DNA from: Psammoneis japonica
Lineage: Eukaryota
Length of the DNA: 47,848 bases
NCBI GenBank assembly: GCA_008632985.1
Contig: QPGO01000132.1
Coordinates: 186,001-233,848, forward strand
Direction: 5' to 3'
Part shown: positions 1 through 47,404 of the stretch, one piece after another
How positions within the stretch are numbered: position 1 is the stretch's first letter
Layout of the letters: every line of letters starts with the position of its first letter
Made by a program: the position numbers and the translations under genes
Notes under the pieces: generated by a model
The model's input: the letters and a program-made list of their open reading frames with translations, nothing else
Told to the model about the DNA's origin: nothing
Database searches by the model: none

Positions 1-445
1 CATCATGGTGTCTCTAGCTGTATTATGCCTTGCGCGCAGGTGCCCCCGCGCGGACACACAAGAATTTTTTCGACTCCCTCCGACACGCGCTCGCTAAAAA
101 AAAAACCGAAAAACGACTCCGGATGGCATCTTGTCGTTGATTGTAAGTAATTGGACGATTATCGTGATAGTTTGACCAGGCGGAAACGCTACACTAGTCC
201 CTAAGATTATATCACTTGAAGGTCTTGTGAAGATTTGAAGAGACACTCGAGAAATCTACCAGGATTTGTTGTGCTTGGATGTCACCGAAATGCTGCACTT
301 TTCTGCGCAATTCATTCTTTGTCGAATCTCCATCTTCCTCCCTTGCAGTCGCACCCATCTATTCTGATGATTCAGCATTACACGGGACATTGTGTGGCTT
401 GAGTAGGCTGTAAGTAGACGAGACATTGTGTCATGAAAAAACAAA

Positions 446-1567
446 ATGGCCAACAACATCGATTGCGCCGCTGCAGCCCAGTGCGGACTTGCTGTCAATG
501 ACGATGGCGGAACGCATGAACGTGGGAGGGCATGTGGTGTGGAGAAGAAGATCGAAGTTCAGAGGGTCTGTCAATCGCTACAAGACATGTCAGAGAGTGG
601 CAGGCCAAATCTAACAGAAGTCGCTCGGGTTTGCAGGGTTGACCGCAAATTTGCAGTCAAAGTGGAACGAGAACTTGACTGTTGCGGCCAAGTGCTTCAC
701 CCGCGAAAGATTCACCAGAAACGAATGTGTGGTCCAGGCGTCAACACAATTGACAGTCTAGATGCTTTTGTCCTTCTGACTCCACATCTGGACGAGCCAA
801 GTCACTCGCTGTCTGGCTGTTGGGAGAATCTGTGCAACCTCACAGGAGCAGTGGTTTCGAACGCTGCCATCAGCAGATTCTGGAATTGTGCATTTACAAC
901 AAGCGGGAAACTTTGCAAGCCAAATCTTGTTCCCTGTGATAAATTCAAACCCGACAACATCCTACGAGCATGCGAGTTCATGATGGTTGTCGCTGAGGTT
1001 GATCCACGGAGGGTCAAATGCGGAGATGAGAAGCTGCTGAAAGGTTCAGAAGTGTGTTGCTGAAGGACAAGGCGAAATGTGCTAATGGGGGAAGTCCCAC
1101 CATCCTTCACATCCTCTGATTTTCGCAACACATGCCCCATCATCGGCTTTTGCGGCATCGACACAAGGACCCACCCTGTGCGTTGCCAGATCCATGACGA
1201 GCCGAATGATGCGGAACAGTTTGCAATGGAGATTGAGCATGCAGTGCATCGGGGCTTTCTCAGAGGTGGTGACATCCTTGTTCTGGACAATGCAGCCTGC
1301 CACGTGCGTGGTGAAAATGCGGTTCTTGAAGAATGGCTGTGGACGGAGCATGGCACATTTGTTTTGTTTCTTCCAACGAGGACCCCTGAATGGAACCCTG
1401 CAGAACTTGTGTGGCGTCAACTTGTGACACAGCTCAAGCACCATCCGATCTGCAGGCTCCGCTCGCACACCGAGCATTCCACCGCCTGTGCTGCCCATGA
1501 CGTGTCATCCCAAATTGCGCATGACCAAGTCTTCTGCATGTGCAGAGCATGTGGACATGTGTCTTAA
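446..1567 (+). pseudogene. IS630/Tc1-type DDE transposase, inactivated
   Basis: ORFs 446..1063 and 1079..1567 are in one frame, split by TGA at 1061..1063 (probably from CGA). Motifs GDEK...LDNAACH...LFLPTRTPEWNPAELVW, with 38 residues between the second D and the E. No Tyr in either ORF. Confidence 0.85.
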
Positions 1568-2723
1568 GCTTGTTCTACAATAGAATGCTCCACTGTAGAA
1601 TGCCCTGCAACAGATTGAGGTGCAATTGAAACTTCCAGGCCCCAGGATTCAGCCCCCGAACACCCGGGTTTCAAGCCCACTCCAATGACGACAACAAAAT
1701 GCCAGCGCAACTCCAGCTGTTGGACATGTTGTTTGAAGGGCAAACAGTCATTGACATCCTGACTAAAACCTCTGAGCAATGATCAATGGTCATGGCGAGT
1801 CAGAATTACAGCTGTGTTCCGCCTCAAGCTTCCGCGTGCAACAGGGGGGGTCAAAATTGCCCATTTGTCACAGCACGTGGAATCTACGTAGATTCTGGTG
1901 TTGACCTTGCTGCAGGCACAGTCAGCAAATGACCCGACAATCACAGCACGCAGGGCCTACGTAGGTCATGGCATTGAACTTACCGTTAAGTCTTGTCAGT
2001 GCATAACCTGCGTGATCACGACTGAAACTTGTGGTGGCGATTCGATTCTTCCCGGGACTGACTGGCGACGAACTGACTGTCACAGTAGAATTTGTACCAG
2101 GTGCTGCGGAAGCTGTGATTAGCAAGTGGGCTGTGATCCAAGAAGGAATCTGGAGCCATGAAGGGGGTGGGGTTTGGAGGCGGAACACACAATTAATTCG
2201 GACTCACCTGTTGGATCTTTCCGTTCAATGGCTGACGGCTGGTGGAAAACCCGGGACTTGCTGTGCTGGGAAACACGTGCGTTTTCCCGCAAAAAATGTC
2301 TCTAAAAATTGATGCTGCTTTGCCGTTGCGAGATTGGATCCATTCGATTCAAATTGTTGATCCGAAAAATACGGCAGTTAGACTTTCACCCCGGCGAGAG
2401 CCACAAAAAGCGCAAGATGTGAGCATTGTCGGTTTCCTGTCCTTTGGGACAATGTCTTGCGAGAACAGAGCAGGTGTGTGTTGTTCATGGTGCCGGGTGT
2501 TTGAACATGAAACTGGCTTTTCGCGGAGCACTGTTGCACGAGAAAGCACAAGGGACGACATGATTTTTAGTGACAGATCTACAACCAATGGAGTTGGGTC
2601 TAGATTGAGACACTGAACAGTGCAATGGTGACAAGATGCAAACACAGTCACCAGCACAGAGAGTCTTGATTGGTTTCAAATGCATCAAGTGGGTTCACGC
2701 AGGAGTTCTGCAGAAATTCGTCT

Positions 2724-4440
2724 TCAAACATCCATGCCTTCGCGTCCAACAGAAGCATTGTTCAAAGCAACATCCTCGCAGACTTGCAAACTTTCAGACT
2801 CGTTGGACAATGAGAAGGATGGTGCAGTCAATGCAGGACGATTCTTTGGAGAACCAGGGAAGGAACATGGCCCCACGCCATTTTGAAAGGAATTCTCCTC
2901 GCCATCAGGATGGCAGTTCTCCTTCTCCTGCGTGCCATTTTCATCAGAATGCACGGGCTCTTCCTCATGTCCTCCATCACACCCTCCATCACATCCATGG
3001 GAGCTGCGACGATCATGGGAGGAGGAGCTGGGAGGTTGGTTTTGGTTGCAGTGGCGAGAGATGCTGTCAGAGCGAGTGTGCTCCCTGTCACTGGTGCGAG
3101 CACTCTCACCATGGCGAGAGACACTGTCAGAGCGAGTGCACTCCCTGTCACTGGCGCGAGCACTCTCACCGCGGCGAGAGATGCTGTCAGAGTGACTGCA
3201 CTCCCTGTCACTGGCGCGAGTGCTCTCACCACGGCGTGAGATGCTGCGACGGCGGTGAGAGCGAGAGTGACTGCGAGAGTGACTGTGACAGTGGCAAGAG
3301 CAAGAACGATTGTGGCAGCGATGGGAATCACTGCAGTCACTCTCACCGTCGCTGGAGCTTGGACTGCGGCAAGAGTGGCTGCGGCCTCTGCTCCCGTGTC
3401 CTCTCGAATGACCACGACGACTGCTGCTGTGGCATCGATTGCGGGAACAACCACGACACCTTGTTTGTTCTTGGTGACAGGAATCATCAGACTGCCTCTG
3501 ACCATGTGGCATTGGACACCCGGAGCCAAGCTTTTTGAGGAAGAAGAGAAAAGGCCAGCGAGTGGAGTCAAAGAAATCAAAAAGAAATGAAAGACATGAA
3601 AGATGCATGAGTGCAGCAAAGAAATGACATGATGCTCACAACGAACTGCCCATTGGAAGCATGCAGTGATTGCATGCATTCCTTCTTTGCATCCAAAGCA
3701 TTCTTCTTCTCCTGCTTTTTTGAATCAACTTTGATTTGCTCTTTCACCCTGAATTCTTCGACATGTGACAGGCTCGCTTGTTTCTTCTTTTCACACACGT
3801 CGTCCTGCGAGGCATTGTTGCTGGAGCTCTTGTTCTTCCTGTTGGATTCTTTGGCTGCTACAAGCTGCTGTTTCAATGACTCGATTTGGTTGTTCTTTCT
3901 CTTCAAATCCTTTTCCATGCTCTCCAGCTCCTTCTTGTCTCATCGCGACTGCTCAACCGCGGCATTCTTTGCGCTCTGAATTTCGCAGAACTTGTTTTGA
4001 AGCGTTGCCTTTGACTGGGCCATCTTGACAAGACTGCCATGCATGGACTTCATGTTGTCACACATGGAATCAACAGATGTGGCTGCTGCTGCCTCCAAGT
4101 GTCCATGGCTGTTGTGCTTTTCCACCAAAGTCTTCTCCAATTTTTCAATGCGCTCGTTTGCCAGCACGACTGCATTTGTGCAGGGGGCAACCTTCTTTCC
4201 CCTTGGCTTTGTGACAGCACCCGGCAAGTCCTTCTTGTAAAGCTTGTTCTGTTTTGGAGGCAGCAGTGGCTTCTGAGGTAGCGCAGGAATGTGATTGGGT
4301 GCAGGGATTGACAGTGGTGTCGGCTCGGTTTCGGTGCGCGTCGGAACTTCGGTCCTTTCTCTTGGTGGGTCCCGCTCTGGAGACACTGTTGATGAATCTT
4401 GTGACACAATGTCATCATGGCGACTTGGAGCCATTGCCCA
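2724..4440 (-). pseudogene. Second, decayed ORF inside the Tc1-like element: Pro-rich N-terminus, Lys/Glu coiled-coil, Arg/Ser-rich C-terminus
   Basis: Consecutive minus-strand ORF pieces (3940..4590, 3577..3918, 2724..3608) with coherent low-complexity protein character, broken by stops and frameshifts. Confidence 0.5.
3051..3246. repeat. 60-bp tandem repeat, ~3.3 copies
   Basis: Unit similar to RYGGCGAGAGAYRCTGTCAGAGYGASTGYRCTCCCTGTCACTGGYGCGAGYRCTCTCACC at 3051, 3111, 3171 and partially 3231. Confidence 0.9.
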
Positions 4441-5056
4441 AGGGGTGTGGGAGTGCGACAAGCCGCCGCCGGCTCTCATTTGACTGAGTTTGTTTGTCAT
4501 GGCGTCGTTTTTGTGCTTTTTTTGTGCGTTGCGGTGAGCGGAGCGACTGCAGAAAAAAATCGACGTTCGCGCGGGGGCACCTGCGCGCAAGGCACAACAG
4601 TTGCGATTCTTTTTTTTTCAATCTGGATCTTTGCGCATCAATTGTGCATGCGCGCGTTTGATGCATGATGACGTCCGGCCGGCCGGCACCTGTGGCCATC
4701 CCACGACCAATCAACGCTGCCAGCAGCTGGCTGCCACTGGCTGGCTGCGGCAGAGAGCAACACCCGTCCAACTTGACAGTTGCAACGGGCTTCATTAAAC
4801 CACCTTGGCAAGCTTGTGTGTGGTTGCACCAATCAAGGAGCAACATTGACAACAATGGGAAGCAAAAGAGTGCCCCGCCGCAGTGATCATGTGCGTCTCT
4901 GGTGGCCCACCAGTGAGGTGTGGTGAAAATGATTTCCAATTTCCCATGCAGACCACAAAAGCAATTTCATCAGCAGCAGTTCCTGCCCTGCACCTTGCCA
5001 TGGCTTGCAAAGTGTCGAAACAATGACAACATGCTGTGGAGCTTTGCCAGCGCTTC

Positions 5057-5917
5057 TTGTGGAGGAGTGCAAAAGGAGTCACGGCACCCATTCCTCGTGA
5101 ACCCTCCATCAACAGAAATGACTTGTCCAGCGATGCAGCCTGAAATGGGCAAACACAAGAATGCCGCCAATCCTGCCACCTCTCTTGGCTTGCCCACTTG
5201 TCCCAGGGGCATCCTTTCAATGACAGGTCCAAGACAATGAGAGTGAGTCAAGCAGCAATGCAGTCGACAAAGCAGCGGAAAAGTTGGTCATGATGTGGCA
5301 TCACAACAAGGGAGATGCAAACGTTTTGGTGCCAGGCTCATTTCACACCGTTTGCAAGACTCAACTCTACGAACTTGCAGCACCAATTCTGTGTTGGTGT
5401 GCCTTGGCACAACACAATTCACATGAATGCCATCAGCAGGGGCCCCCCATTCACACACCCAACTCCCAGTTGTCTCTGATTCATGGCTGCCTTTGCAGAT
5501 GTGCAAGTTGTCCCCGACTTGACACATGTGACCCCTGCAACCAACCCAATGTTGACAACACTGCTGGTTGATCCATTGCTTTATTTTGACAGGTGGTTGT
5601 GACATGTGCCATTGTTGGGTGAAATGTCGTGCTCTGAAAGTTGGTCTTCCAGATCATGAACTCAAGATCTTCTTCCATGTGTTCAACAGACTGCCCACGG
5701 GTGTTGGCACCCACATTGTTGACAAGTGCATCTGGTTGTTGCCTCTTGCCAAGAAACTTCATGATTTCAGAAACCAGCATTGCTTGACCTTGTTTTGTTG
5801 AAACATCCACCACAAGCCCGCCACGCCCACCCCCCTGCCTTCCTCCATTGTGTTGAGCACAGCTGTTCAAGTCATCTTGATTTCATCCCCACAAGTCACA
5901 AGACACAACACTGAAGC
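5057..5917 (-). pseudogene. 5'-truncated, hypermutated copy of the tropinone-reductase-like SDR at 19424..20413
   Basis: Aligns to 19424..20249 and retains the intron. The 3' flank also aligns (~4665..5056 with ~19085..19423). [10 protein letters not shown] has become [11 protein letters not shown], and there are frameshifts. Confidence 0.92.
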
Positions 5918-5959
5918 ACACACCTCTGATGTCCTCCAAACCTTGAAACCACTGGCATG

Positions 5960-7511
5960 TCATGTCCCAAAGGCTCAAGCATGCCTGCTGAGCACCACCT
6001 GCTCACTCCAGACCCCCGTTCGGATGCACAAAAATGGGGGTTTGGTTGTGTCAACGACCCCAAGGCCCTCTTGAGGGATCTGGTTGCTTTGGTCATTCCC
6101 AAGTGCCATCTCCTGCTCATCAAGTTGCACAAGAGTGAGAGTGCTTCTTGGGAAAAAATGTGCACATGCTCATGGTGGATTCACTTGGCGGGCAGTCAAA
6201 CAATCCAGACCTGGTGGAAGCACTGTTGCCATTGGCTTGGTGTGATCCACACCTCCACCATGTTGGCAATGATGTTAGAAGAGTGTTCCTTCCAGTGGAA
6301 GCAAACCTCACCATGGAAAACAATGAGATTGATGTCACAGGGGGAGACATTGGCTGGACCGACAAAGACACAATTTGGTCAACCTGAACAAGTCAACATC
6401 TGCATGAGAGAAATCAACAAGTGTGTTGGATCAAAGCACATTGGGTGCAGCATTGACAGTTTCACTGGATGCTCTAGAGCCATTGTCTTTGTTCTTGACA
6501 AGAGCCAGTCTGATGATTTGGTGAGTCAAAACAACTGGGGAAAGGCTGTGGCCATTCATTCTGGGGATCATCTATTTTTTGCATGATCAAAAGGGTGTTT
6601 TTGATGAATGAGCACCCTGTTTTCAAGAACTTGTGAGGCACTTTGATGACAACTCTGGCACTGCAACAATGCATGCCAGCAGAAGTTGGGCACCACAATG
6701 ACTCTTGCACCAGTGATTCAGATTAGCAGGCTCAATGATGTGGGTGCACACACATGGTTTTCAATGAATGTGGTGGGTGACAACTTCTTGTTTTAATTGC
6801 AACAAATTGCTGTTTTTGATTGTGACAAATGGTTGAAATTGGCACCAACACAAGGTCACTTGTTGTGCAGTTGAGCAGGGAACAGTTCATTGCAAAGCAC
6901 CAACCCATGTTGAACTCACAGTTTGGCTCAATTCCATGATGTGCACATTGTTGCTGAGTGACTCAGGCAAAGACAACATTGATGACTGCACAAAGAACAT
7001 GGAGTGGTTTCATGCTCAATTGCAAGCAACATCAAAACATCACTTCTCTGGTCTTGGCTCACATCTCAAAGGGAGACTTCCACTGGCAAGAGAGAGACAA
7101 TGCTTGCAGCTGGGCTCTCACTTTGCACGGAGCACATTCTGTGACAAATCTGCACACACAAGCACAACAGTGTGCTTGCGCAACCATGTTGCTCAGTGCA
7201 TTGAGCACATTGGAGATGATGAAACAATGCCAGCATCTGCAAACCACTTTCCACCACGTGCAGCCAGGACCAAGAGTGGTGCGCACCTTGTTGAGCACAA
7301 CCTGAGAAATTTGACAACTCTCAAGCTGGAGTGGCAGTGGAGTTGCTGTTGTTTGAAAAACTCACAAGCTGGCATCAAAGTTGAGCAATTCAAAGAACCA
7401 AAAAAGAGCAAATTTTGCCAAAGCTGCCCACACGAGTCCATTGCTGAGCATGCTCTGATGAAAAAAGCTTTCAAAGAGTTGGCTGAGTCAGTTGCCAGGT
7501 GTTGTGTTTGA
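5960..7511 (+). other. Heavily decayed coding remnant, probably TE-derived; family not recognised
   Basis: TpA- and CpG-depleted sequence with protein-like plus-strand fragments (5957..6586, 6936..7511). No diagnostic motif seen. Confidence 0.25.
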
Positions 7512-8430
7512 TCCAGCTAAGAAAGCAGAAATTGTTGGGTTGTTTGGCTGGAGCGAGCATGAAATCCAAGAGCTCAAGAAGAAGCTCAAAGTCCAGGGAA
7601 ACTGAGACACGTTGGTGGACAAAAACAACAAGGCATTTGGGCTGCCTTTTTGGGCTTGTGTGTGGGCTCTCAATCAAGCCAAGGTGCAGCACATGTCAAG
7701 CAATCTTGGGTGTGAATGGCAGCTCAGGTGGTGTGGGAAGGATGATGTGTGGTGGATTTTTTTGCTGCAACATGCAAATGAGTGATGATTGACAAAGGGA
7801 AGTGCCAGTTGGTTCTGCAGCAGCAGCTCTGGTGTTGATGCTCTCTGCTCTCCCTGCTTGTTGCGCACTGCACCATGGGAGTGTGACAAATGTGACCACC
7901 AACATAGAAAACTGACACAAAAAATGCACAAAAAAAAACTGTCACGTGACAGTTTTGAGTTGGCGCGGCACTGCATTGCCGTTGGAACACAGGAGGTTCA
8001 GATGTTGGGTGCTGCTCAACTGGGTGTGACACTCGAACAGATGATGGCCAGGATTTTGCAGATTTTTGAATGTTGTTTGTTGAAACATGAGGGTTGTGTG
8101 AAAGCTCTGCACCAGATTGCATGGAATTCCACATGACCGGTGGGCACTGCACCTGCCACTGCAAGTTGTTTGTTTTTGCAACACAACGTGGTGATGACAA
8201 TGATGCTGCTTTCACATCAATGCAGGAGGCAGACCTGTTGGCACAGACACATGTTGAGATTGTTTTCTGACACTGCACATCAACAGGGTTCCAACAGTTG
8301 GCACTGAAAGTGCACAACCTGCTGTGCCAGCATGGCTGGATCAATGCAGTGACATGAGGAGTGACCATTTGTGGTGAAATTGAATTTCCTTGTTGTCAGA
8401 GACAATTGTCAATGCCCCCCCCCCCCCCCC

Positions 8431-33022: not shown

Positions 33023-33029
33023 AGGAAGG

Positions 33030-36800: not shown

Positions 36801-36901
36801 ACTCTGTCTGCTCGCCCGCCGCGCCCTTGCAGGCTCAAGCCGCGACAACGCAAAACGCAACAGTAACAGCGTCAAAAGCAGAGACGAAACAGATTGAAGG
36901 C

Positions 36902-38230: not shown

Positions 38231-39343
38231 TCACATTGCCGCAAGATGGGCAAATACAGAGCCAATGTAGAACGTCTCTCCCAAACTTTGTACATCGGGA
38301 CGATTGAAGCTGCAAACGAAAATAGCAGCAAGGGCAGAGATCAAAAGAAGCACTCCAGGAGCAATGCCTCCTGCCTTATTCTTCAGCATAGCACCTGCCA
38401 TTCCGATTTGGTACAGAACGATTGCGAAAACGGGAAGCATGCACTCCAATACCTTTCCAGAGGTATAGGCCAATGTTCCCGCAAGGTACCGTCCATTGTG
38501 AACTGTCAATCGACGGTTGTCAGCAACTTTCATTTCAGATGAATCGAACAAGATCCATCGGGTGCACTTGATAAGGGCAAGAGCAAGCCATGCTGTCTGC
38601 AAAAGAGTCTTGGTTTTTGCAAAAAGCAACCCGTGTTTTCCTGCAATTTCCGTAACGACTACCGCAACCATGGGAACAGATGCACCATGAAGCACACAGC
38701 AAAGCTTAGAAAGACGCCGAAGTATTATGCCTTCTCCCAAAACTTTTCCGGCTGCTCTGACAGCATTATCCGTAAAAAGTCCAGCGTAGCTGACAATGAG
38801 CGATAACTTGGAGATTGAGCGAATTGATACACCATTTTGAAGAAGAAGAAAGAAGGATGCAGCGGCCAACAATATATTGACTCTGTGAACATTTGATCCA
38901 TTGCTCCACCATTGTTTTAATGGTAAAGTTCGAGATGACAGCTCCGCCTCCCGTGCTAGAGTTCTTCGGAAAACCTCATCACATGCTGCGCTGTCTAAAG
39001 ACGCTGATGGGTGCAACCAGAGATCATTAATGTAGTAACTGGAGTATCTAACTTTCCGCAGGCTCACAGGATGACTTGCAACGGAAACTGGTCTTGCACA
39101 AACGGGTTTGTTGGATGCAAATGAAGTAGGGAACAACTGATCCCTCCGGCCATCAACTACTGGAATCAGCTTTTGACGAGAACTGTCCAAACAAGCTGTG
39201 TCCGACCACAACGGAGCAATGAAGGTGGTTGGATTACCATAAGTCTTCCGCGGCGACAGTGGTGCGGCTAAAAATGCAAACGATTGTGCACTTCTCATGC
39301 CGACAAGAGCGGAAAAAGCAAACCAGACAGCAATCATCGTCAC
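38231..39343 (-). CDS. Multi-pass membrane protein of unknown function with bipartite plastid-type presequence
   Basis: 370-aa ORF with signal peptide, AQS-FAF motif and Ser/Thr/Pro transit-like segment, plus several hydrophobic helices. Normal composition. Confidence 0.7.
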   Translation of the reverse strand: MTMIAVWFAFSALVGMRSAQSFAFLAAPLSPRKTYGNPTTFIAPLWSDTACLDSSRQKLIPVVDGRRDQLFPTSFASNKPVCARPVSVASHPVSLRKVRYSSYYINDLWLHPSASLDSAACDEVFRRTLAREAELSSRTLPLKQWWSNGSNVHRVNILLAAASFFLLLQNGVSIRSISKLSLIVSYAGLFTDNAVRAAGKVLGEGIILRRLSKLCCVLHGASVPMVAVVVTEIAGKHGLLFAKTKTLLQTAWLALALIKCTRWILFDSSEMKVADNRRLTVHNGRYLAGTLAYTSGKVLECMLPVFAIVLYQIGMAGAMLKNKAGGIAPGVLLLISALAAIFVCSFNRPDVQSLGETFYIGSVFAHLAAM

Positions 39344-39609
39344 TCATGTTGTGTCTGACTTGTGTGCCCGCCCAGCTGTTCCTCTTCAATTTCTGAAGGT
39401 TCACCTCAATGGGCAATATTCTAAATTAATTCAACGCTAGAGATCGTCAATTAAGATGATTCTGTACAAACGGCGATAGATGCCTCATTTTTAAGACTAT
39501 CATGTATGCATAAATGATTGATAAAAGCTATTTTATGGGGCTATTTATTATTTCTATTCTGTATCAGAAACTCCCTCCAGCCAACTGAAAACGCTACAGT
39601 AACGCCCAA

Positions 39610-40960
39610 CGCACACGCAGACCATCCAACTCCTCACTGCTGTAATCACCGCCCGCCTCTCTTGCTTCCTGGTCCAACTGCCGCTCTTTCCCCACCGCCT
39701 CTGTTCTACGGTGTCTCCCGACACCTGCCCCAACTCTCTTCCAACTGGACTCATCCTTGCCTGCCACCATCTCTGGCCATTTCCTCCGAGGCCCAGCCCC
39801 ACATACCTGCCCATGCCACCACAACAAAAACAAACAACCCTCCTCCACCTCTCCCAACAATTGGGGGGCTCCAACCGGCTCTCCCTCCCCTGCTCTCACC
39901 TCTTGCCAGCCTTTGCCTCTGCTTCCTCTCCTGCCCCCACCTCTGCAACTGCCTCTCCTGCTCCCAAGAACTCTCACCCTTTTTTTCTCATTCACAAATT
40001 TTGCCCCCACCCCGCTGTTCCTCCAGACCTCTGACGTTCGCCTTGCCCCCTGTGACCACTCTTGCCCCCATCTCTGTGGTGATCATGCACTCATGTGCCA
40101 CACAAATCACAAAGAACCTTTTTCCAATCACATCCATGACACCATCTGCTTCATGATCATTGAGGCTCGAGACCCTTGGTTCTCTTGCTGGCCTGCGCCG
40201 ATCCTCTTGCCACCACCACATCTTTTTCGAACACTCCAGTCTCATTTCTGACCCCATCCCTCAACAGCAGGGCCCAAGTTGACCCTCAGTTTTGTTGAAA
40301 TGCACTCTTTTTTGTGGCAAAACATTGAAAAATGACAGCAGGTGCGCCAACTCAGTTCTTTTCAGGCACCGGGGTTTCTCTGCACTTCCTCCTCCTCTGC
40401 CCCTTTTGTGACAAGCTGCATTTTTGGTTGGCACAGGTGGCAGTCCATTTGCAGCCAGCATCCCCTCTGGACACTTTGTGCACACTCACAGCTGACCAAA
40501 CAGCACTGTGTCTGTGATCTGTGAGGAGACATGTGCGCTGATCACGCTCAGATGTCGAGGAGCAGTGCCCTGATGTTGCCACGCATCTCTTTCAGATTGT
40601 CTCCTTGTAGACTGGAGAACAGCTTTTGCACTGTCTCTCTCATCAACATTTCTCTCACTTGCAGGAATCACCAAAAACAAAAACAAAAAGACTGAGCCAC
40701 ACACCAGACTGAGTGGTGCTGCTGTCTCGCCCCAAATTTGTGCACAAAACTGTGCTTTGCCTAAAAGCCCACATGCTTTGACAGTGCAAGCACAAATGGA
40801 ATGTCAAGAACATTTTGTTGTGTCCTCAATTGTTTGGTCTGCCATCTTCTTTTTCAGCAGGAAAACAGTTGCATGGCTCAAGAGAGTGGACTCCTGCAAG
40901 CTGCAAGTGTGTGAGAAATCCCTGTCACCACACCTGCAGACAACACATTTGGCACTGGTT
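39610..40960. other. TpA-depleted, pyrimidine-skewed decayed insertion between intact genes
   Basis: Abrupt loss of TpA relative to the AT-rich flank at 39400..39600. No family motif seen. Confidence 0.45.
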
Positions 40961-41183
40961 TAACCTTGTTGTCATTGACCCTCCTGTTTAGAAAGCTGGC
41001 GTGTGGGGTTGATTTTGGTCTTGAGTTGTGTTTGTTTTTGGCGAATGATCAAATCGTGGAAACAAAAACCCGGATTCGTACCACGACTGAAACGATCATT
41101 CGAACGCGTCGAATCATCACGAAGCACGTAAGACACGGGACCAACTATCGAAAGGAAAACCAGAAGAAACAAAAAAAGCAACC

Positions 41184-41438
41184 ATGACAAATGTCTGTGA
41201 AGATGCAGCCGACAAGACTGTGAATGGAAAGACCCCCAAGGTCGAGTCACGTGGACTAGCAATATGTTTGGGTATTGTCAACTGCTTCTTTTTCGGGATT
41301 GGAACCATGATTGCCGGCTTTATAGCCAATGATCTTGCCGATGTTTTGATCGGTGTCGGTCAGCTCTTTATTCCCTTTGTGGGATGGATCTGGTCCATCG
41401 TATGGGGAATTCTCATGATTTGTGACAAGGGAGAATAG
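41184..41438 (+). CDS. Small Spec3/Stum-like membrane protein
   Basis: IVNCFFFGIGTMIAG...LIGVGQLF...VGWIWSIVWG pattern. Confidence 0.8.
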   Translation: MTNVCEDAADKTVNGKTPKVESRGLAICLGIVNCFFFGIGTMIAGFIANDLADVLIGVGQLFIPFVGWIWSIVWGILMICDKGE

Positions 41439-41787
41439 GGGACGCGAAGAAACGTCGTGGAGTGGGAATCTTTGTCCAGTCTAGCTCGGCCGTTTGTCCA
41501 TTCTAAAGTTGATCACATGTTTATTGAAAGGATTCGTGGCTTTCGTGGGAATAGCTACCAGTATGGTAAATTAGTCATTAGCGCAACAAATGGATAGCAT
41601 CTACATAGGTACAGCGTTGACCACGATTCTTATGGTTCTCTATCTTTACACTAGGGTTATCTTGCCTACGTCTGCAAGGCTTATCTCACACCACGTGACA
41701 ACTAAATTGCACTGATACTTTATAGGCGACAGGCTTAGGCCGTATTACTAAATCCCGCGCATCGTCCAAACAGTACTCTTTCTCTCC

Positions 41788-43047
41788 TTAAGTTTCATCT
41801 TGCATAACCCACGGAGGACACGCAATCGCTGGCAAATTCTCTTGCGGAGCCGCACAGCTTGCCATTTTCTCATCCCACGTGTTCATGACACAATACCACT
41901 CACTCCCATGGCGCTCCAGAATCTGTGCCTTGTCCATGGACCTCAAACACGCCCGCCACTTGCCACACGAGGTGCATCGAATCCACTCGTAGGGTTCCTT
42001 GGAGGACGTCGACGCCGACCGCTTGTTGCCACCGCGTGTCATGGGACGACGGGCATCTCGAAAGGATTCTTGTCCGCGCAAACGACGGACCCAAACACGC
42101 AAATGCTTGCGGGTACGAGCGTCCGCCGCGTCTTCTTCGGGCTTGGAGGTTTCCGAGTACTCTTCCTCCGGAGCGGAACAGCGAGAGCGTTCCGGGTCGT
42201 TCTTGTTCATGGAACAATACCAACGAGACGGAAGCTTGGTTTCGTCCACCACTCCGCGGAGACGGCGCCACTGGAAAAAGAAGAGAAGAGGTGTGTGAGG
42301 ATTTGGAATTTGAATTTCAGAAACACAACATAAGTTTATGCAGAAACATACCTTTTTACACTTGTCACACTCGACCCACGTGGCATGACTGCTGCCCGTG
42401 GTGGGTCCAAAGATGGATCCTCCCTCTTCAAGGCCATCCTTACTTTCGGTAACGTCGCTGGAAGTCGCAGACTTCTTGGTTGCTACGGCTGGCACAGACT
42501 CGCTATCGGACGTTCCCGACGACAGTCCGCTGTCCGTAGCATCATCTTTACTACGCTTTTTCTTTTTCTTACTCTTTTTCGAACGACGCACCGCCGGTTC
42601 CACCGTGGCTTCCGGAGCTTTTTTAGATTGCTCTTCGGGTAGAGACGCAGCCGCCACGTTGCTTCCGGTCCGACGAAGCATCCAGAGACGCTTGCGCATG
42701 GCAGCCTTGATATCCGACCTCTCCAAGCGTTCCTCATCCGGCTCGGAATCGGAATCACTGACAATCGATCCAATCGCTGAATAGCGATCATCTTCGAGGG
42801 CACGACGCATTTGATCTTGAACCGCCATTTGTTGGGCGTGATGCTTTTTGGAAGACGACGACGACGACTTTTTGCGTTCCTTTTCCTTTTTCTTTTTTGA
42901 CTTTTTCGTGCCGTCCTTTTTGCGTTTTTTCGATGGACGCGGTTGCTCCGCGTTTTCGGGGGTCGGTGGTGGTGGAGCGATTGTGGCCATGACTGTCGGG
43001 GATGCCGGAGGAGAGGACGGTGCCAACTTGGTTTCTTCAGAACTCAT
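41788..43047 (-). CDS. Nuclear protein with two CW-type zinc fingers; 81-nt in-frame intron (42271..42351)
   Basis: WVECDKCKK|WR...WYCSMN...C..PEE and WIRCTSCGKWR...WYCVMNTWD...C..PQE. Lys-rich NLS-like tracts. Intron GTATGT...TTCCAG. Confidence 0.88.
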   Translation of the reverse strand: MSSEETKLAPSSPPASPTVMATIAPPPPTPENAEQPRPSKKRKKDGTKKSKKKKEKERKKSSSSSSKKHHAQQMAVQDQMRRALEDDRYSAIGSIVSDSDSEPDEERLERSDIKAAMRKRLWMLRRTGSNVAAASLPEEQSKKAPEATVEPAVRRSKKSKKKKKRSKDDATDSGLSSGTSDSESVPAVATKKSATSSDVTESKDGLEEGGSIFGPTTGSSHATWVECDKCKKVCFCINLCCVSEIQIPNPHTPLLFFFQWRRLRGVVDETKLPSRWYCSMNKNDPERSRCSAPEEEYSETSKPEEDAADARTRKHLRVWVRRLRGQESFRDARRPMTRGGNKRSASTSSKEPYEWIRCTSCGKWRACLRSMDKAQILERHGSEWYCVMNTWDEKMASCAAPQENLPAIACPPWVMQDET

Positions 43048-43369
43048 GGCGTATGGATATGCTATGGCTAGTTGCTGTTGTTGTTGTCGCTTTGTGCCGT
43101 GTCTGCCGTGTGTGTCATCGGCGTGTTTTGTCGTTTGTTTTTGTTGAAGCTATTTGCCAAACACAACCAAACGAAAAAATTGCCGGTGGTATGGTCGGTC
43201 ACCTGTGACGAAATTCAGTCAGTCAGACAGGCAAAAATATGAAATAATGACGTCATGTTCACGTCACCTTGGTTAAAAAAACGCGCGACGGGCGCGGGCG
43301 CAGCGTAGTTTAGTCACCGGTGCCGTCTTGTTGGAAGTCACAACGCGCAACTCGTTTTGTTTCGCAGCC

Positions 43370-43935
43370 ATGGCGGCGATTTGCATTGGAGGCATTTGCG
43401 TTCCTTACAGTGCCGTGCTCCCAACATTGGCACTGGCACTGAAATGGATCACCACAAAACTGGCCGTGTTGGGAATTTGCCCGATTCTGTCGTGGAATGG
43501 TTTGGGTTGCAACAACAGCAAACTGCCACCAAGAGCTGCTGTCAAGAAAATGCCTCCCGGAGCATCAACACAACTGGAGCTCCATCTGCAAGAACAATCG
43601 AATCGACAGAGGAATGGAGCGGCTTGATTCAAGATGACAAGATGGAAGTCGTCAAGTTCACCGCATCCTGGTGCAAACCCTGCAAAGAAATTGCTCCCTG
43701 CTTTTCTCAGCTCTCCTCTGGAGACTTTGACGCGACCTTTTGTCAAGTCGATGTCGATGATCTAGACGAGGCAGTGGCTCAGCACAAGGTGGCCATGATG
43801 CCCACCTTTTGTGTCATCAAGGGAAAGCAAGAATTGGCCGCGAGTCGAGGAGCCAATCAAGCTGATTTAGAACACATGGTGACGCAACATGTTCCAAGAC
43901 GAGCCCAGCAATTCATCAAAAAGCATGTGCAGTAG
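43370..43935 (+). pseudogene. Hypermutated, frameshifted copy of the thioredoxin at 47405
   Basis: Colinear with 47405..47848. WCKPC active site. 1-nt deletion near 43475. Only 2 TpA remain where the intact copy has 14. Confidence 0.92.
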
Positions 43936-44198
43936 ATTCAAGTTTGACAAGAAGCACAGAGATTTAAATGGACTGCTTGCAGTCTTCTCCTCCTTTCTAG
44001 AGTCCATGCGAAAACGATGCTTCGTAATTGAGGATTGCAAATCCAGCGAAAAGACACACGCCAAACCCGACGATGTCCCTTTGGCATCACGAAGTCGTGC
44101 ACCGACGGCAATGGCACCGCCGCTTGCGGACAGAGAAACTGACTCTCCAAACCTGTCACTCGATGTCTCCCCCGTCAAGGATGTGCCCACCTGTTTCC

Positions 44199-44548
44199 GA
44201 CGCGTTCCAGGTCTAGGTGGGACCTCGCACCACTGAACTGTGACATCGACAGTTTTTTGAATCTCGTCGTATGTCGCGCACGTAGAATTCTACGTGATTT
44301 TTTGATGTTTTGTGTCATTTTACGGTGCACTTGTTGAGCGATCCGTCCAAAAACTTTTGACATTTTTTGTTACAGCGCGATTCTATGATGTCTTAAGAAT
44401 CGCACAGGGCAGGTGCATTTGCAAAAACGTCAAGTGGCAAGAGGCACAATTGTGCCACAAACTTGGCCGTTCATTTGATGTTGAAGATGAACACATCCAT
44501 CAATTAAATTCTCGCACTGCGGAGCTCGCACGTAGAATTCTACGGGCC
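44199..44548 (+). mobile_element. MITE copy 1; right end lost at an assembly N (44549)
   Basis: The first ~95 bp match the reverse complement of 45190..45287. The sequence before the N matches the subterminal part of the other end of copy 2. Confidence 0.8.
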
Positions 44549-44880
44549 NTTGGCGTCGTGCCAGTGGCCTCCCGCCACTGCGACACATCCGTTTGCACTC
44601 TCAAAGACACGGACCAGCCAAACTCATTGTCCACTTGCAGAGTGGAAAGGGTTTGGCCTCGTTGTTCCCATGACTCAGAAGAGCTGTCGCATTCACACAC
44701 AAAGACTCGTCCAATGGTCGGAAGGTCCAAAAACTCGCCGGGTGCACCCATGGCCATGACCAATCCACTGTCATCCAGCAACACCGAGTGTCCAAACCAA
44801 CCACCGGTGATTGGACCATCAACAGCATCACCCATGGGTTCCCATGTGGACATTTCTGAGCTGTGCTGAAACACAGAAAC

Positions 44881-45287
44881 GACGGGTTCCAGTCCCAGGT
44901 GGGACTCCAGTCTGGGACTCCGTGTGACATTGGGCCCGCAGAATTCTGCGTGCGAGCTCCGCAGCAAATTTGTGCTGCAATGAAAACATGAATGATCGCC
45001 AACAGAAAAAGAGGCAATTTTACGAACGTTCTCCTCCTTCATGCTTGGAGTGCATCATTGACAGTTTGCCCGGGTGTGTTCTTCAGACATTAAAGAATGT
45101 GCCCAGCATTTTCATTCTCACAAATGTTGAAAATAGAAAGTCTTTGGCTTCGCAAAACAGGGAGTGTGAAACAATTTCGTAGAATTTCACACGTAGAAAT
45201 GTGCGTGCGCGACATGCGACGCGATCCAAAAAACTGTTGATGTCACAGTGCAGCAGTGCGAGGTCCCACCTAGAGCTGGAACGCGTC
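44881..45287 (-). mobile_element. MITE copy 2 (407 bp), imperfect ~26-bp TIRs, 4-bp TSD AAAC
   Basis: GACGGGTTCCAGTCCCAGGTGGGAC ... GTCCCACCTAGAGCTGGAACGCGTC, flanked by AAAC on both sides. Removing it restores the host frame G-Q-V-S-V-F. Confidence 0.88.
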
Positions 45288-47404
45288 AAACCTGACCTCC
45301 ACTGATCACACCGGAATCACTCTGACGTGCTCCAATTGCAAGCACTCCACCAGAGCTGCTCAGCGACACAGACCAGCCAAAGGAATCGCTCAAAGCTTGT
45401 CCCAACAGTGTTTGACCAAGCTGTTGCCACGAGCCGTCCTTGCATTGAAATGCTCGAACCGATCCCGAGTCATCACCGTTGCTCATGTCTTCCAACACAG
45501 GATCCCACAGCGACAATGTTTCCTTCTCTGTTCAGCGACACTGAAATGCCAGAGCATGCAAATGCTTGAGAACCATCAGCGTTGCTTCCGAGTTGGATCC
45601 ACCAATCCATGGAGAAACTGCATTGAAGCACTTGGACGTGACCCGCATTGGATCCGCCGCTGTTGTCGTTTTCATCTGCTCCAATGGCAACGACAGTGCC
45701 ATTTCCATTCAGCGCCATGGATTCGCCAAAGTCGTCACCCGCGGCGTCTCCCAGCAAATCTTGTCCCATGGGCATCCACAAGAGTGATGATTCGTCCGCA
45801 AGTCGAAACACAGACACGCGCCCGTGTTTGGCGGAGGTTTGTGTGGCTCCCACAGCCATGACGCGGGCGTCGTCTCGTGACAGCACCGCGGGGAGACCAA
45901 AAATGTCGGGCGCACTGTTGCCATGCAAGACTTGTCCCACCGAGATCCACGTGCCATTTTGGCAATGTTACAAAGGCGGTGTGAGATGGAGTGGGAGACA
46001 GAGTCGGTGGTCTTGCAGTTGGACTTGTCGTGGGACTCGTGGGATTTTTTGGCGATGGCTCTGGCGAGTTTCCGCCGCTGCCGCTGTTGTTTCTCATGGA
46101 CAGTGCGACAGCTGCTGCTGCCAGTGCGGCAAGAGCAACAACTAGAAACCCAATCACCGATGCAATCAGCCAAATCTGACGACTCTTTGTCACTCTCTCT
46201 GCATCTTCCGACTCATCGTTGTTGTTGACCACTTGAGCAACCTCTGCGTGAGCAATCGGAGCTGACTGACGAAATTCGTCTAGCTCCGATCGCAAATGAT
46301 CGATTTCTTGTTGCATGCTTCCCACGTCTCGTGGTGACTGTGCGACTTCAGCCTTGACCACCACAGTGCCACTCGTGTCAGGTGGCTTGACGGGAGGAAG
46401 GTGCTGCTCTTGGACAATTGTTGTGTTGTCCAACTCGGCAAAGACCGCAATGCTGTCATGGTCACCAGCACGTGGAGTCACGCCTTGTGGATTGACTGCA
46501 TGTGCCCCGGCTGCGGTTGGCATGGCAATTGGTTCTGCCATGACATTTCCGATTCCTTCTTCCTCGTCATGTTGTTGAAAACGACGATGACCACGACGCT
46601 TCTCATGCATTTCGGGAGCAAAATTTTCACAGGCGGCACGTGACACTGCCGATTGAGCAGACGAAATCATCACAGGAGAGAACAAAGCCATGGCAGAACG
46701 TACGGGAGGACTCAAGGAGACTTCATCCGACATTTCTTCAGATCCAGGTCGCCGGGAAGACCTTGTGCTCATGCCGAGCATTCCAAACTGACCGACACCG
46801 CCAATGTTTCGTCGACTGGCAGTTCTTGCCACTGCATTGCGGTGACCAATGGCAGCATCTCTTGTTTCATATAATCTCTCTTCACTCTGCAAGATGCGCT
46901 CGGCGGCTGCATCGATGTTCCGTGTTTGTAGCTCATGTTGACCAGAGCAAATCGCCTCCACTGAACGGTCCACATTTCCTCCATGTTGAGCAAGGATCGA
47001 CTCTAATTCAGCCACTGGCATGTCCTCAAACAACTCCACGAGTTGCATCAGTTCATGGCTTGACGATGACGACATGATGCTGGAAGTCTCTCTTTGAATG
47101 AATGAGGGTACGACGACGGCTGATGGCTTCATCTACCGTATCCGCGAACGCCTCGGTCGTGGATGCGAAATTTCGAAACTGAAAAACAGCCAAAAAATGA
47201 GAGTGCACCTTTTGCTTTGCTCGGACACCTTTTTCTATTATCATTCAGACTTTGTGAGACACACAAGCAAATTTTTACTTATGGAGCACAGAAACTGACA
47301 CGTCACGTACATTGAACGAAACTAAACTAACGACACCACACAAAATCGCGTGCAGTCAAATATTAATCAGGAGGTTCGCTTCTTTTCTTTTCGTCTCTCT
47401 GGCC

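Follow-up and report, generated by a model that had tools for sequence, protein, structure and literature searches.

Near-Complete Loss of TpA from Transposon Remnants and Disabled Gene Copies in a 48-kb Stretch of Diatom-Like DNA

Results

Extent of the TpA Depletion

Across about two-thirds of a 48-kb stretch of DNA from a diatom-like stramenopile (the window, 47,848 nt, analysed at its full length), nearly all TA steps have been turned into TG or CA. The effect is real and extreme, and the erased sequence consists of defunct transposons and disabled copies of genes. Over the whole window the observed/expected ratio was 0.23 for TpA, 1.53 for TG, 1.52 for CA, and 0.59 for CG. In 1-kb windows TpA fell to 0.02-0.13 at approximately 3,000-18,999, 28,000-36,999, 40,000-40,999, and 45,000-46,999, and stood at 0.43-0.69 at 19,000-26,999, 37,000-39,999, and 41,000-41,999. 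Limits set by individual TA positions define four tracts, at 1084-18760 (with TA thinning from about 415), 27557-36761, 39805-40900, and 43407-46701; those drawn in the first-pass annotation were correct to within about 100-650 nt. Summed, the tracts (31,273 nt) hold 149 TA, with observed/expected ratios of 0.075 for TpA, 0.425 for CG, and 1.68 for TG+CA, against 549 TA and ratios of 0.524, 0.94, and 1.24 in the genic remainder (15,492 nt). This confirms the annotation's claim that TpA is nearly absent from transposon and duplicate tracts and normal in genes.

The window contains 41 TA-free runs longer than 250 nt, 19 longer than 500 nt, and 4 longer than 1,000 nt, the longest being 1,573 nt. 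As a control, 282,965 nt of diatom-like metagenome sequence from 52 loci (GC 0.36-0.52) gave a single run above 250 nt (366 nt), and no 500-nt window in them combined observed/expected values below 0.12 for TA and above 1.4 for TG/CA. The absence of such tracts from the 52 loci may mean that the process is limited to certain species, or that metagenome contigs miss repeat-rich DNA.

Contents of the Tracts and Verification of the Sequence

Tract 1 includes inserts with weaker depletion at about 1565-2601, 8784-9425, 11315-12347, and 14842-15208; CpG in it is close to normal over 2600-5000 and depleted over 5000-18760. A Pfam scan of its ORFs of at least 70 aa found DDE_3 and SDR remnants and nothing else. 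Tract 2 has near-normal CpG at 27557-31180 and strongly depleted CpG at 31184-36519. Two tandem 360-nt units in it (31526-32243) are 97% alike and both lack TA, and none of their 7 mismatches involves TA. TpA clearing ends at the edges of expressed genes; tract 2 stops 3 nt short of the ORF of a methyltransferase gene. Tract 3 is intergenic, with a gene on either side, and is depleted in CpG too. Tract 4, where CpG is near normal (0.7-1.06), holds a thioredoxin duplicate, remnants of FG-GAP_2 repeats (minus-strand matches at 43870-44289, 45289-45531, and 45476-45967), and a very high-copy repeat. No viral genes were detected among the tract targets.

The letters were checked against k-mer contigs from run X1, which may be the assembly's own sample and is therefore not an independent isolate. 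These contigs contain 0.97 of 1,045 sampled words from 14001-24000, so that the TA-poor letters are reproduced by read-derived contigs, from this one run. A single X1 contig of 6,383 letters at an even depth of 63.8 spans 32986-39367, from TA-free tract into the neighbouring gene, with 9 differing letters, and no half-depth alternative to it was seen. An assembly slip is ruled out. X1 depth was 250-400 at 27849-31850 (4-6 times single copy) and far higher at 32518-33184 (6,580) and 43857-45857 (summed depth 23,500-78,600). It was about 64, the single-copy value, at 33185-35185 and 35853-36519, both TA-free, and 45858-46524 is likewise TA-free at single-copy depth.

Two Gene Pairs and a Transposase

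An intact SDR (tropinone-reductase-like) gene lies at 19131-20470 on the minus strand (Pfam adh_short, E=9e-45). It has a 108-nt GT..AG intron at 19596-19703 and normal TpA. Its homologues, of which those named are from diatoms, share 61-67% identity. Its hypermutated pseudogene, also on the minus strand, lies at 4756-5917, 14 kb away (BLAST pair, 77.8% over 1,167 nt; 81% identity between the copies). The pseudogene intron aligns gap-free to the parent over 108 of 108 nt, 83 of them identical, and 289 nt of 3' flank align as well. Since intron and flank are kept, it is a DNA-level copy. In the pseudogene 51 of 52 TA steps are changed (27 to CA, 20 to TG), while the intact gene retains TA in its intron and 19 TA in its 3' flank.

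In the thioredoxin-domain duplicate (43309-43935, plus strand; Pfam Thioredoxin, E=2.7e-19), TA is depleted and the N-terminal part is not in frame with the other copy. That copy, which has normal TpA and serves as the reference, lies at 47402-47848 (plus strand) and is truncated by the window end. The copies are 3.6 kb apart and 90% identical, and 12 of 14 TA have changed in the duplicate (6 CA, 5 TG, 1 TC). The four internal comparisons on which the first-pass annotation had based its direction of change are thus of unequal value: the SDR and thioredoxin pairs are strong, and the other two are weak, with exchanges between TA and TG/CA, in either direction, making up 2 of 28 mismatches in the so-called Tc1 TIR pair and 2 of 11 in the MITE pair.

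The Tc1-like transposase pseudogene (437-1564, plus strand; Pfam DDE_3, E=1.7e-12) comprises 376 codons with one in-frame TGA. Its read-through translation contains 0 Tyr, 26 Cys, and 18 His. Among its 92 homologues those with a name come from diatoms, which fits the annotation's guess of a diatom, and at the 9 columns where at least 50% of 89 homologues have Tyr, it carries Cys in 6, His in 2, Phe in 1, and Tyr in none. It keeps the conserved columns for Cys (3/3), His (3/3), and Trp (4/4).

Direction, Specificity, and Rate of the Change

TA is, on these sequence comparisons, settled as the ancestral state and TG/CA as derived, because the SDR outgroups and the Tyr loss in the Tc1-like copy (89 homologues) agree. 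At all 13 SDR TA codons with non-synonymous differences the intact gene's residue is the commoner one among 55 outgroup proteins. Five of these are Tyr invariant in 55/55 outgroups, including Tyr207 (TAC>TGC), which we take to be the catalytic Tyr. The polarity proposed earlier, TA to TG or CA, is upheld by both.

Either base pair of the step can undergo the change, which is an A:T>G:C transition confined to TpA. In the SDR pair, A>G affects 49 of 102 TpA sites (49 single hits and 2 double changes over 52 TA steps), compared with 15/173 at ApA, 16/174 at CpA, and 10/127 at GpA (8-9%), as the annotation's hypothesis of a TpA excess over other NpA predicted. In the thioredoxin pair the figure is 11 of 28 at TpA versus 3-6 per 54-75 sites elsewhere. 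One hit removes a TpA site, and for this reason saturation for A>G at TpA is 0.5; clearing is near saturation. Hits fall about equally on the two strands, and each site is independent of its neighbours, with 23 runs in the order of CA and TG outcomes, where 23.95 were expected (P=0.45). When two copies that are both depleted are compared, adjacent TG/CA double differences number 39, versus 5-7 for each other double-transition class, a surplus that independent resolution of an ancestral TA (or CG) in the two copies would produce. The mutations arose on DNA, in place, after copying or insertion.

TA loss amounts to 98% (SDR) and 86% (thioredoxin), with background divergence of 12% and 7% and CpG loss of 81% and 37%, respectively. 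Per site, TpA change is roughly 27-30 times background substitution and outpaces the CpG decay of these sequences. CpG observed/expected is 0.05-0.3 in most TpA-depleted tracts, and CpG loss is absent from the depleted segments 2600-5000, 27557-31180, and 43407-46701. CpG>TpG/CpA decay, found in most but not all tracts, is a second and separable process, probably 5mC deamination; methylation of transposons has been reported in diatoms (PMC5124317, PMC9998398).

The contexts of surviving tract TA differ from those of genic TA (chi-square P=5e-17). The ratio of tract to genic TA density is low for ATAT (0), GTAC (0.01), and ATAC (0.03) and high for CTAG (0.30), CTAA (0.39), and TTAA (0.49). R-TA-Y sites are cleared most fully and Y-TA-R sites (TTAA, CTAG, CTAA) least, judging from survivors of mixed age. 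New TA arising from CA or TG was considered as a source of the bias and rejected, the contexts of CA and TG not accounting for it. In an independent test, hit direction in the two gene pairs was as predicted in 23 cases versus 11 (P=0.058), with Y-TA-Y alone unbiased at 9:8; this test of the R-TA-Y preference is only suggestive.

Discussion

It is very probable that a region-limited process in gene-poor tracts of transposon remnants and pseudogenes turns TpA into TpG or CpA. The central proposal of the first-pass annotation, a separate, near-saturating, region-limited A:T>G:C process at TpA that runs opposite to fungal RIP and is distinct from CpG decay, holds up. Its idea that repetition is the trigger does not. 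Homology does not trigger the mutation, because one copy per pair is spared and single-copy tracts are hit. We infer targeting by silent-chromatin state instead of sequence homology, because of the position of the tracts, their CpG decay, and the reported methylation of diatom transposons cited above. In the mechanism we propose, such a state would mark gene-poor tracts for mutation, a TadA/ADAT2-like or other nucleic-acid deaminase would act on adenine in a 5'-T-A(-Y) context, and the resulting hypoxanthine would be copied as G when the DNA next replicates. Given a real process, adenine deamination is the most likely chemistry, with somewhat less than an even chance, something else is possible but doubtful, and a mutagenic modification of thymine or adenine at TpA is unlikely.

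That last chemistry leads to the alternative that TpA loss is a by-product of epigenetic base modification in silent chromatin, as CpG decay follows 5mC, through TET/JBP thymine hydroxylation (5hmU, 5fU, or a J-like base) mispairing with G to give T>C, or through 6mA at TpA. Adenine and thymine targets are indistinguishable here because TpA is self-complementary, so that T>C fits all counts equally with A>G, and the co-occurring CpG decay shows that the tracts are epigenetically marked. We nevertheless consider it improbable, since 5hmU has little mutagenic effect and forms a good pair with A, whereas the partner of hypoxanthine is nearly always C, and since the T-A-Y context favoured here is similar to the U-A-C loop on which TadA acts; we know of no diatom 5hmU or TpA-specific 6mA. 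In dinoflagellates, which also belong to the SAR lineage, thymine in repeats is chemically marked: TET/JBP-made 5hmU marks and silences transposons, and older work had T in TA and TC preferentially replaced, but as described there the mark is reversible and comes with no reported mutational footprint (PMC11572971). A later base-resolution map from another dinoflagellate found no motif or sequence preference (PMC11071213), which also counts against this alternative. A true "reverse RIP", in which a duplication-sensing system mutates sequences for being repeated, would agree with the repetitive nature, now or formerly, of most depleted sequence, with the high X1 depths, and with both gene remnants in the tracts being duplicates. 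It is very unlikely, given that only one copy per pair was mutated despite 81% and 90% identity, that the intact copies hold TA at unconstrained intron and flank sites, that tracts at single-copy depth are equally TA-free, and that the main target reported in the chlorarachniophyte Bigelowiella natans is single-copy (10.64898/2026.01.13.699255).

Pol-eta-like error-prone synthesis during heterochromatin repair, another candidate of the annotation, mutates A>G at WA motifs and would yield A:T>G:C transitions where the 5' neighbour is T or A. ApA, however, shows no excess over CpA and GpA, and AA/TT observed/expected in the tracts is 1.1-1.35, which makes this explanation hardly plausible. Some platforms systematically miscall modified bases, and a sequencing, base-calling, or assembly artefact from a modified base at TpA could be imagined. 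We see only a slim chance of this: the X1 contigs agree, one of them running at even depth from tract into normal gene, the former TA are cleanly CA or TG in random order, unlike a systematic miscall, and the same copies carry indels and other substitutions. ADARs form a metazoan family, which already speaks against a route through RNA that undergoes ADAR-like A-to-I hyperediting and is then reverse-transcribed and inserted, as do the DNA-level SDR copy with its intron and flank, the hit DNA transposon, and the independent divergence of copies after copying. In favour of this reading, ADARs favour a 5' U and hyperedit repeat-derived dsRNA (10.64898/2026.01.13.699255); we hold it to be extremely unlikely. 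We give next to no credence to tracts that were TA-poor from the start, through foreign origin or transposon-intrinsic composition, or that lost TA by selection. Nothing beyond the composition itself favours this; intact paralogues and the 55 and 89 outgroup proteins make the TA codons ancestral, pseudogenes and introns are affected too, and the polarised comparisons refute it for the SDR, thioredoxin, and Tc1 sequences.

The TpA process has relatives among known systems. Fungal RIP also irreversibly inactivates transposons by dense transitions at a single dinucleotide and leaves aberrant tracts beside normal genes. RIP, however, changes C>T at CpA and thereby makes new TpA, the step that is destroyed here. 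It also detects duplication and, within a single premeiotic phase, mutates both copies, whereas here one copy per pair escapes and DNA present in single copy is hit. CpG decay by 5mC deamination in methylated transposons similarly turns a palindromic YpR into TG/CA in silent repeats on either strand, but it is C:G>T:A and slower here, against A:T>G:C for the TpA process. Deaminase-based restriction likewise turns dense context-specific transitions against selfish nucleic acids; to this group we assign APOBEC3 on retroviral cDNA, whose spectrum is C>T, ADAR hyperediting, TadA/ADAT2, and TadA-derived adenine base editors. No natural enzyme is known to us that defends a genome by deaminating adenine in its chromosomal DNA. 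The preference of adenosine deaminases for a 5'-T (U) neighbour matches TpA (10.64898/2026.01.13.699255).

The closest case comes from mutation-accumulation lines of B. natans, in which integrated viral DNA that is silent was caught acquiring TpA>TpG/CpA hypermutation de novo, with a rate near 6e-7 per site and generation (Mettrop et al., bioRxiv 10.64898/2026.01.13.699255). According to that preprint, the genome also has TpA-depleted clusters and coding sequences enriched for DDE and RT domains, and an ADAT2/TadA-like deaminase was proposed, the idea that the annotation put forward too. Both cases share a near-pure A>G/T>C spectrum at TpA only, yielding TpG or CpA. Our organism differs in being a diatom-like stramenopile, on a different supergroup branch from the rhizarian B. 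natans, in its targets (transposon remnants and gene duplicates rather than integrated viral DNA), and in the degree of depletion, with an observed/expected ratio of 0.075 over 31 kb versus 0.45 in the B. natans NCLDV insert. What we see here is a footprint, left by a process that may since have died out in this lineage. A term search of the preprint returned no mention of a flanking-base bias, a pattern of one hit per site, an absence of strand clustering, or a separable CpG decay.

We found no report of TpA-erasing hypermutation in diatoms in the literature searched. The footprint is not new as a kind, having one earlier report, in the unrelated alga B. natans; new relative to that report are the saturation, the RTAY>YTAR context bias, and the separate CpG decay. 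All Tyr codons are erased, to Cys or His, TA-containing Leu, Ile, and Val codons are lost as well, and the stops TAA and TAG disappear. The erasure of TA thus means an irreversible destruction of coding capacity.

Distribution of TpA in the Window

The window has a G+C content of 49% over its 47,848 nt and observed/expected ratios of 0.23 for TpA, 1.5 for both TG and CA, and 0.59 for CG. The TpA deficit is unevenly spread, and the positions of all 729 TA steps were used to set the limits of four depleted tracts at 1084-18760 (tract 1), 27557-36761 (tract 2), 39805-40900 (tract 3), and 43407-46701 (tract 4). Combined, these blocks of transposon remnants and pseudogenes span 31,273 nt and contain 149 TA (observed/expected 0.075, CG 0.425, TG+CA 1.68); the remainder, referred to here as genic DNA, contains 549 TA in 15,492 nt (0.52, 0.94, and 1.24, respectively). 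The near absence of TpA from four regions, reported in the first-pass annotation, was thus confirmed, with coordinates correct to within about 100-650 nt. In the window, TA-free runs longer than 250 nt number 41, of which 19 exceed 500 nt and 4 exceed 1,000 nt, up to a maximum of 1,573 nt. As a control, we used metagenome DNA flanking homologues of the short-chain dehydrogenase-like (SDR) gene of the window (52 diatom-like loci, 282,965 nt, GC 0.36-0.52). It has a single TA-free run above 250 nt, with a maximum of 366 nt, and in the 52 loci none of the 500-nt windows is both poor in TA and rich in TG/CA, a result that says little about repeats because the control contigs are short and gene-centred.

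The tract edges lie no more than tens to hundreds of nucleotides from gene ends; the depletion is regional and adjoins normally evolving DNA. Tract 2 has a very abrupt right-hand boundary (36761-36764), the last TA-free run stopping 3 nt upstream of the methyltransferase ORF, and TA density is normal from the start of that ORF (36764) onward. Islands of weaker depletion occur within the tracts, including a very high-copy repeat at about 44025-44541 (14 TA in 43857-44523), which suggests that such islands may be younger insertions and that TpA loss may accumulate gradually. A single N lies in this repeat region of tract 4, at 44549.

Genes and Remnants

The part of the window with normal TpA carries the SDR gene (19424-20470, minus strand), a Dicer-like ORF with RNase III and PAZ domains (22625-25699, minus), an ORF overlapping upstream of it with a weak dsRBD match (25498-26679, minus), a class-I methyltransferase (36764-37804, plus), a zf-CW protein (41788-43149, minus), and a thioredoxin copy truncated by the window end. 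In the depleted part, Pfam identified a Tc1-like DDE_3 transposase (437-1564, plus), an SDR pseudogene (4756-5917, minus), a thioredoxin duplicate (43309-43935, plus), and FG-GAP_2 remnants (43870-45967, minus). The named SDR homologues (61-64% identity) come exclusively from diatoms (Cylindrotheca, Pseudo-nitzschia, Mayamaea, Nitzschia, and Seminavis), and the named transposase homologues belong to Thalassiosira, Cyclotella, and Skeletonema. These matches place the source among the diatoms or their close relatives, and apart from the chlorarachniophytes. An in-frame GT..AG intron of 108 nt (19596-19703, minus) interrupts the SDR gene; it is missing from all 55 homologous proteins, and if it is translated the ORF product gains 36 false residues. 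The zf-CW gene has an 81-nt GT..AG intron (42271-42351, minus). The Dicer-like gene (22625-26679 with the upstream ORF, minus) is flanked by two hypermutated tracts; its 1,024-aa ORF has only 2 relatives, at no more than 34% identity, among the near-length proteins of a collection of 5.8 billion. This position may be a coincidence or may reflect a link of RNAi to targeting, and it is worth keeping in mind.

Of 331 window ORFs of at least 70 aa, 259 overlap the tracts, one of them 496 aa long. The Pfam scan covered 256 of these tract ORFs (150 + 106), the 3 others being scanned separately. No match passing or near the cut-off was found in the 256 beyond the DDE_3, SDR, and FG-GAP_2 remnants, and the scan left most of 6000-18760 and 27557-36761 without a family assignment. 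A viral hallmark, sought by Pfam in the same 256 ORFs, was not found, the tract matches being the DDE_3, SDR, FG-GAP_2, and thioredoxin remnants. Sub-cut-off matches to Bac_rhamnosid_C, SLR1-BP, zf-LITAF-like, and Fimbrial families were disregarded as too weak, and the tRNA, Rfam, and tandem-repeat scans of the window made no contribution to the finding. Long tract ORFs without a family match include 31375-32865 (plus), 2609-3538 (plus), and 15948-16868 (minus). Since TA-free DNA lacks TAA and TAG, two of the three stop codons, long false ORFs arise in the tracts, which are a trap for gene callers; TpA loss further biases the annotation of TEs, the dating of divergence, and searches for foreign DNA that rely on composition.

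Comparison with Sequencing Reads

The window sequence is present in one sample, in three runs (X1, X2, and X3). Contigs built from X1 reads contain 0.97 of the sampled words of 14001-24000, and a single X1 contig of 6,383 letters at depth 63.8 joins the methyltransferase gene to the adjoining TA-free tract, differing from the window at 9 letters. The half-depth alternative sequence expected from unfixed modified bases was not seen in this contig. The letters of the tracts are therefore borne out by the X1 contigs, which agree with the window; X1 may be the sample behind the assembly itself rather than an independent isolate. Among the 40 listed of 284 differences between window and X1, 9 are TG or CA in the window and CG in the contig, and 3 are TA in the window and CA or TG in the contig (28053, 43933, and 43966). 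Some of these differences, including the last three, may be paralogues.

X2, listed as "DNA?", behaves like cDNA, since its contig skips exactly the 81 bases of the zf-CW intron, which confirms that intron. In the part compared, X2 covers almost only bins with a TA observed/expected ratio of at least 0.31, the exceptions being depths of 5.7-8 over 30517-31850 and 0.14 over 44524-45190. Bins without X2 cover are not evidence of silence, and X2 cover was not used as evidence. X3 (1,439 records of 40-154 letters) matches the window only at 44199-44536, on both strands, over the very high-copy repeat, and could be a small-RNA library with siRNAs from that repeat.

TA Is the Ancestral State

For two copy pairs in the window, one member falls within a tract and its partner is genic. 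The intact SDR gene and its pseudogene in tract 1 align over 1,111 nt at 81% identity. Of the 52 TA of the intact copy, 1 is kept in the pseudogene, 27 are CA, 20 TG, 2 CG, and 2 other; of its 48 CG, 9 are kept and 31 of the 39 changed are now CA or TG. The thioredoxin pair (443 nt, 90% identical) has 14 TA in the genic copy, of which 2 are kept, 6 are CA, 5 TG, and 1 TC, and 12 of 19 CG are kept.

Polarity was determined at the 14 comparable TA-containing codons of the intact SDR gene, using the 55 homologues as outgroup. Thirteen of the 14 are non-synonymous in the pseudogene, and the intact residue is the commoner one among the homologues at 13/13. Five tyrosines invariant in 55/55 homologues have become His, Cys, or Arg, including Tyr207 (TAC>TGC), which we take to be the catalytic residue. 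The transposase, translated through its single stop, has 376 residues with no Tyr, 26 Cys, and 18 His; its 92 homologues average about 4% Tyr and 1.7% Cys. At nine columns that are Tyr in at least 50% of 89 homologues, the residue in the window transposase is Cys (6 columns), His (2), or Phe (1), and all conserved Cys, His, and Trp columns are retained. The outgroup residues and the transposase tyrosine columns agree with the polarity proposed in the first-pass annotation, and, by these protein alignments, indicate that TA is ancestral and TG/CA derived in the host-gene copy and the genuine transposon alike.

Among the 92 transposase homologues, P0198 and P0191 are also Tyr-poor and Cys/His-rich, as are 5 of 150 library representatives (including P0191). 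Together these six public proteins (P0191, P0198, P0250, P0310, P0323, and P0356) have 0-1% Tyr, 2.7-4.8% Cys, and 2.3-6.3% His. They look like hypermutated copies from the source organism or others, a hint that the process may not be confined to this locus.

Properties of the Process

Changes of the A>G type account for 49 of 51 changed TA sites in the SDR pair and 11 of 12 in the thioredoxin pair. With strands folded, A>G in the SDR pair reaches 49/102 at TpA, where saturation is 0.5 because a change at either base pair destroys the step, against 15/173 at ApA, 16/174 at CpA, and 10/127 at GpA; the expected excess at TpA over other NpA was thus found. For C>T the proportion is 33/95 at CpG, other contexts giving about 6%. 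Both positions are altered in just 2 of the 52 TA steps of the SDR pair, that is, a single hit at nearly every site. CA and TG occur at nearly equal frequency (27:20 for SDR, 6:5 for thioredoxin) and in random order along the sequence (23 runs, 23.95 expected, P=0.45), so that the strand-coordinated clustering that marks a processive single-strand deaminase is absent from the CA/TG order.

The change happened on DNA, in place. The SDR pseudogene retains the 108-nt GT..AG intron of its parent (108 aligned, 83 identical, gapless) and 289 nt of 3' flank, which rules out a retrocopy and, for this pseudogene, RNA editing. Comparing repeat copies that have each been depleted, we counted 39 adjacent TG<->CA double differences compared with 5-7 for each other class of adjacent double transition, an excess expected if an ancestral TA or CG was resolved separately in the individual copies once these had been made.

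The process is not homology-triggered. A single member of each pair is mutated; in the intact SDR copy, TA has survived where constraint is weak, and the 3' flank alone has 19. Depletion is equally strong in bins with the read depth of a single copy (about 64) and in those at 4-6x or above 100x that depth. TA loss is 98% (SDR) and 86% (thioredoxin), compared with a divergence elsewhere of 12% and 7%, giving a rough rate per site of about 27-30x the per-lineage background, which is a lower bound because TA loss is at saturation. In the same pairs CpG loss is 81% and 37%; TpA was therefore lost faster than CpG. TpA loss and CpG decay are two separable processes: 2600-5000, 27557-31180, and 43407-46701 are TpA-poor with a CpG observed/expected ratio of 0.6-1.06, and the other tract parts have 0.05-0.45.

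Flanking Bases

The contexts of the 149 surviving tract TA are non-random (chi-square P=5e-17). Relative to genic DNA, the density of tract TA is 0 for ATAT, 0.01 for GTAC, 0.03 for ATAC, 0.06 for ATAG, 0.09 for ATAA, 0.14 for GTAA, 0.15 for CTAC, 0.30 for CTAG, 0.39 for CTAA, and 0.49 for TTAA, an order not accounted for by the surroundings of the CA/TG steps that could give new TA. Taken as A>G, the change favours T-A-Y; taken as T>C, it favours R-T-A. The prediction that R-TA-R gives CA and Y-TA-Y gives TG held at 23 sites vs 11 in the two pairs (P=0.058, not significant), the trend being driven by R-TA-R (14:3), with Y-TA-Y at 9:8. The flanking-base motif is suggestive.

Tc1/mariner elements insert at TA and piggyBac at TTAA. 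Erasure of TA also removes Tc1/mariner insertion sites, and TTAA is the most refractory context; as a speculation, hypermutated tracts may turn into poor landing sites for some transposon classes.

Comparison with Known Systems

Fungal RIP changes C to T at CpA, creating TpA, is triggered by duplication, and mutates both copies. The tracts go in the opposite direction, TA being lost and CA/TG gained, and C>T at CpA is at background (10/172). The trigger also differs, and the first-pass reading of the tracts as a repeat-targeted, "reverse RIP" process was not supported: one copy is spared in both pairs, and tracts at single-copy depth are equally TA-free. Mutagenesis by Pol-eta at WA motifs produces A>G at TA and AA alike; the Pol-eta-like polymerase that had been put forward as a candidate was rejected, A>G at ApA (15/173) not being raised. 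RNA hyperediting of the ADAR type, fixed by retrotransposition, was likewise rejected, as the pseudogene keeps its intron and flank and a DNA transposon is affected. Decay of methylated CpG is present in the tracts (31/39 changed CG now CA or TG; CG observed/expected 0.425) as a co-occurring process, since CG>TG/CA is unable to remove TA. Methylation of CpG in diatom repeats, documented in the available parts of two studies (PMC5124317, PMC9998398), probably accounts for this second process. A thymine-directed route, T>C at TpA, may instead underlie the TpA changes. TpA is self-complementary, and in dinoflagellates TEs carry a 5hmU mark produced by a TET/JBP enzyme; for this mark the portion available of one source gives older data of a TA/TC preference (PMC11572971), but a later 5hmU map, as far as its accessible text goes, has no motif (PMC11071213).

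The closest match is a preprint on mutation-accumulation lines of Bigelowiella natans (bioRxiv 10.64898/2026.01.13.699255). In its accessible part, 231 of 302 new mutations lie in two silent integrated viral regions; 230 of these 231 are A>G or T>C, and all GC-biased ones are at TpA. The de novo rate, about 6e-7 per site per generation and in some lines only, is about 1000x background. That part also reports 124 genome clusters depleted in TpA and enriched in CpA+TpG, with DDE and RT domains enriched in TpA-poor CDS, proposes an ADAT2-like deaminase, and makes no mention of diatoms, CpG, or flanking bases. Shared with the tracts are the near-pure A>G/T>C change, its restriction to TpA, and its regional nature. 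The targets differ, being integrated NCLDV/virophage DNA in B. natans and yielding no viral hallmark in the Pfam scan here; a viral target is not strictly defining, since the preprint also reports the DDE and RT enrichment. Mutations were seen arising in B. natans, whereas we have the footprint alone. Because the signature is the same, the kind of process is already known, though only from that preprint, as far as its available text describes it. Our literature search found no report of TpA-directed mutation in diatoms.

Implications

The TpA-depleted tracts are real, and their specificity, their polarity, and the reads strongly support a mutational origin, which we consider highly probable. 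More tentatively, diatoms, and perhaps SAR lineages generally, may possess an enzyme devoted to editing double-stranded chromosomal DNA at 5'-(R)TA(Y) under the guidance of chromatin, either a naturally occurring adenine deaminase acting on DNA or an equivalent that modifies thymine. By erasing TpA it would put transposons, pseudogenised duplicates, and integrated viruses permanently out of action. It would thus parallel RIP in function, with chromatin state rather than homology as its cue, and would operate alongside 5mC. A TadA/ADAT2-like effector would be a nuclear, chromatin-linked, DNA-active deaminase with HxE and PCxxC motifs. The stramenopile-restricted deaminase-SAM-Tudor fusions and LmjF36.5940-like deaminases described in the accessible part of PMC3239186 are candidate leads only.

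Compared with the available text of the preprint, what is new here is the saturated end state, the one-hit-per-site logic, the flanking-base preference, and the independence from homology and from CpG decay and methylation; a near-saturated footprint supplies these, and mutation-accumulation data could not. The enzyme, if found, could provide a natural adenine (or thymine) editor of duplex chromosomal DNA. If confirmed genome-wide, this would be a second lineage with a mutational genome defence chemically opposite to RIP and APOBEC, and the first such case in an ecologically dominant, genetically tractable algal group. Its occurrence in a rhizarian and a stramenopile would indicate an old SAR-wide system or convergence.
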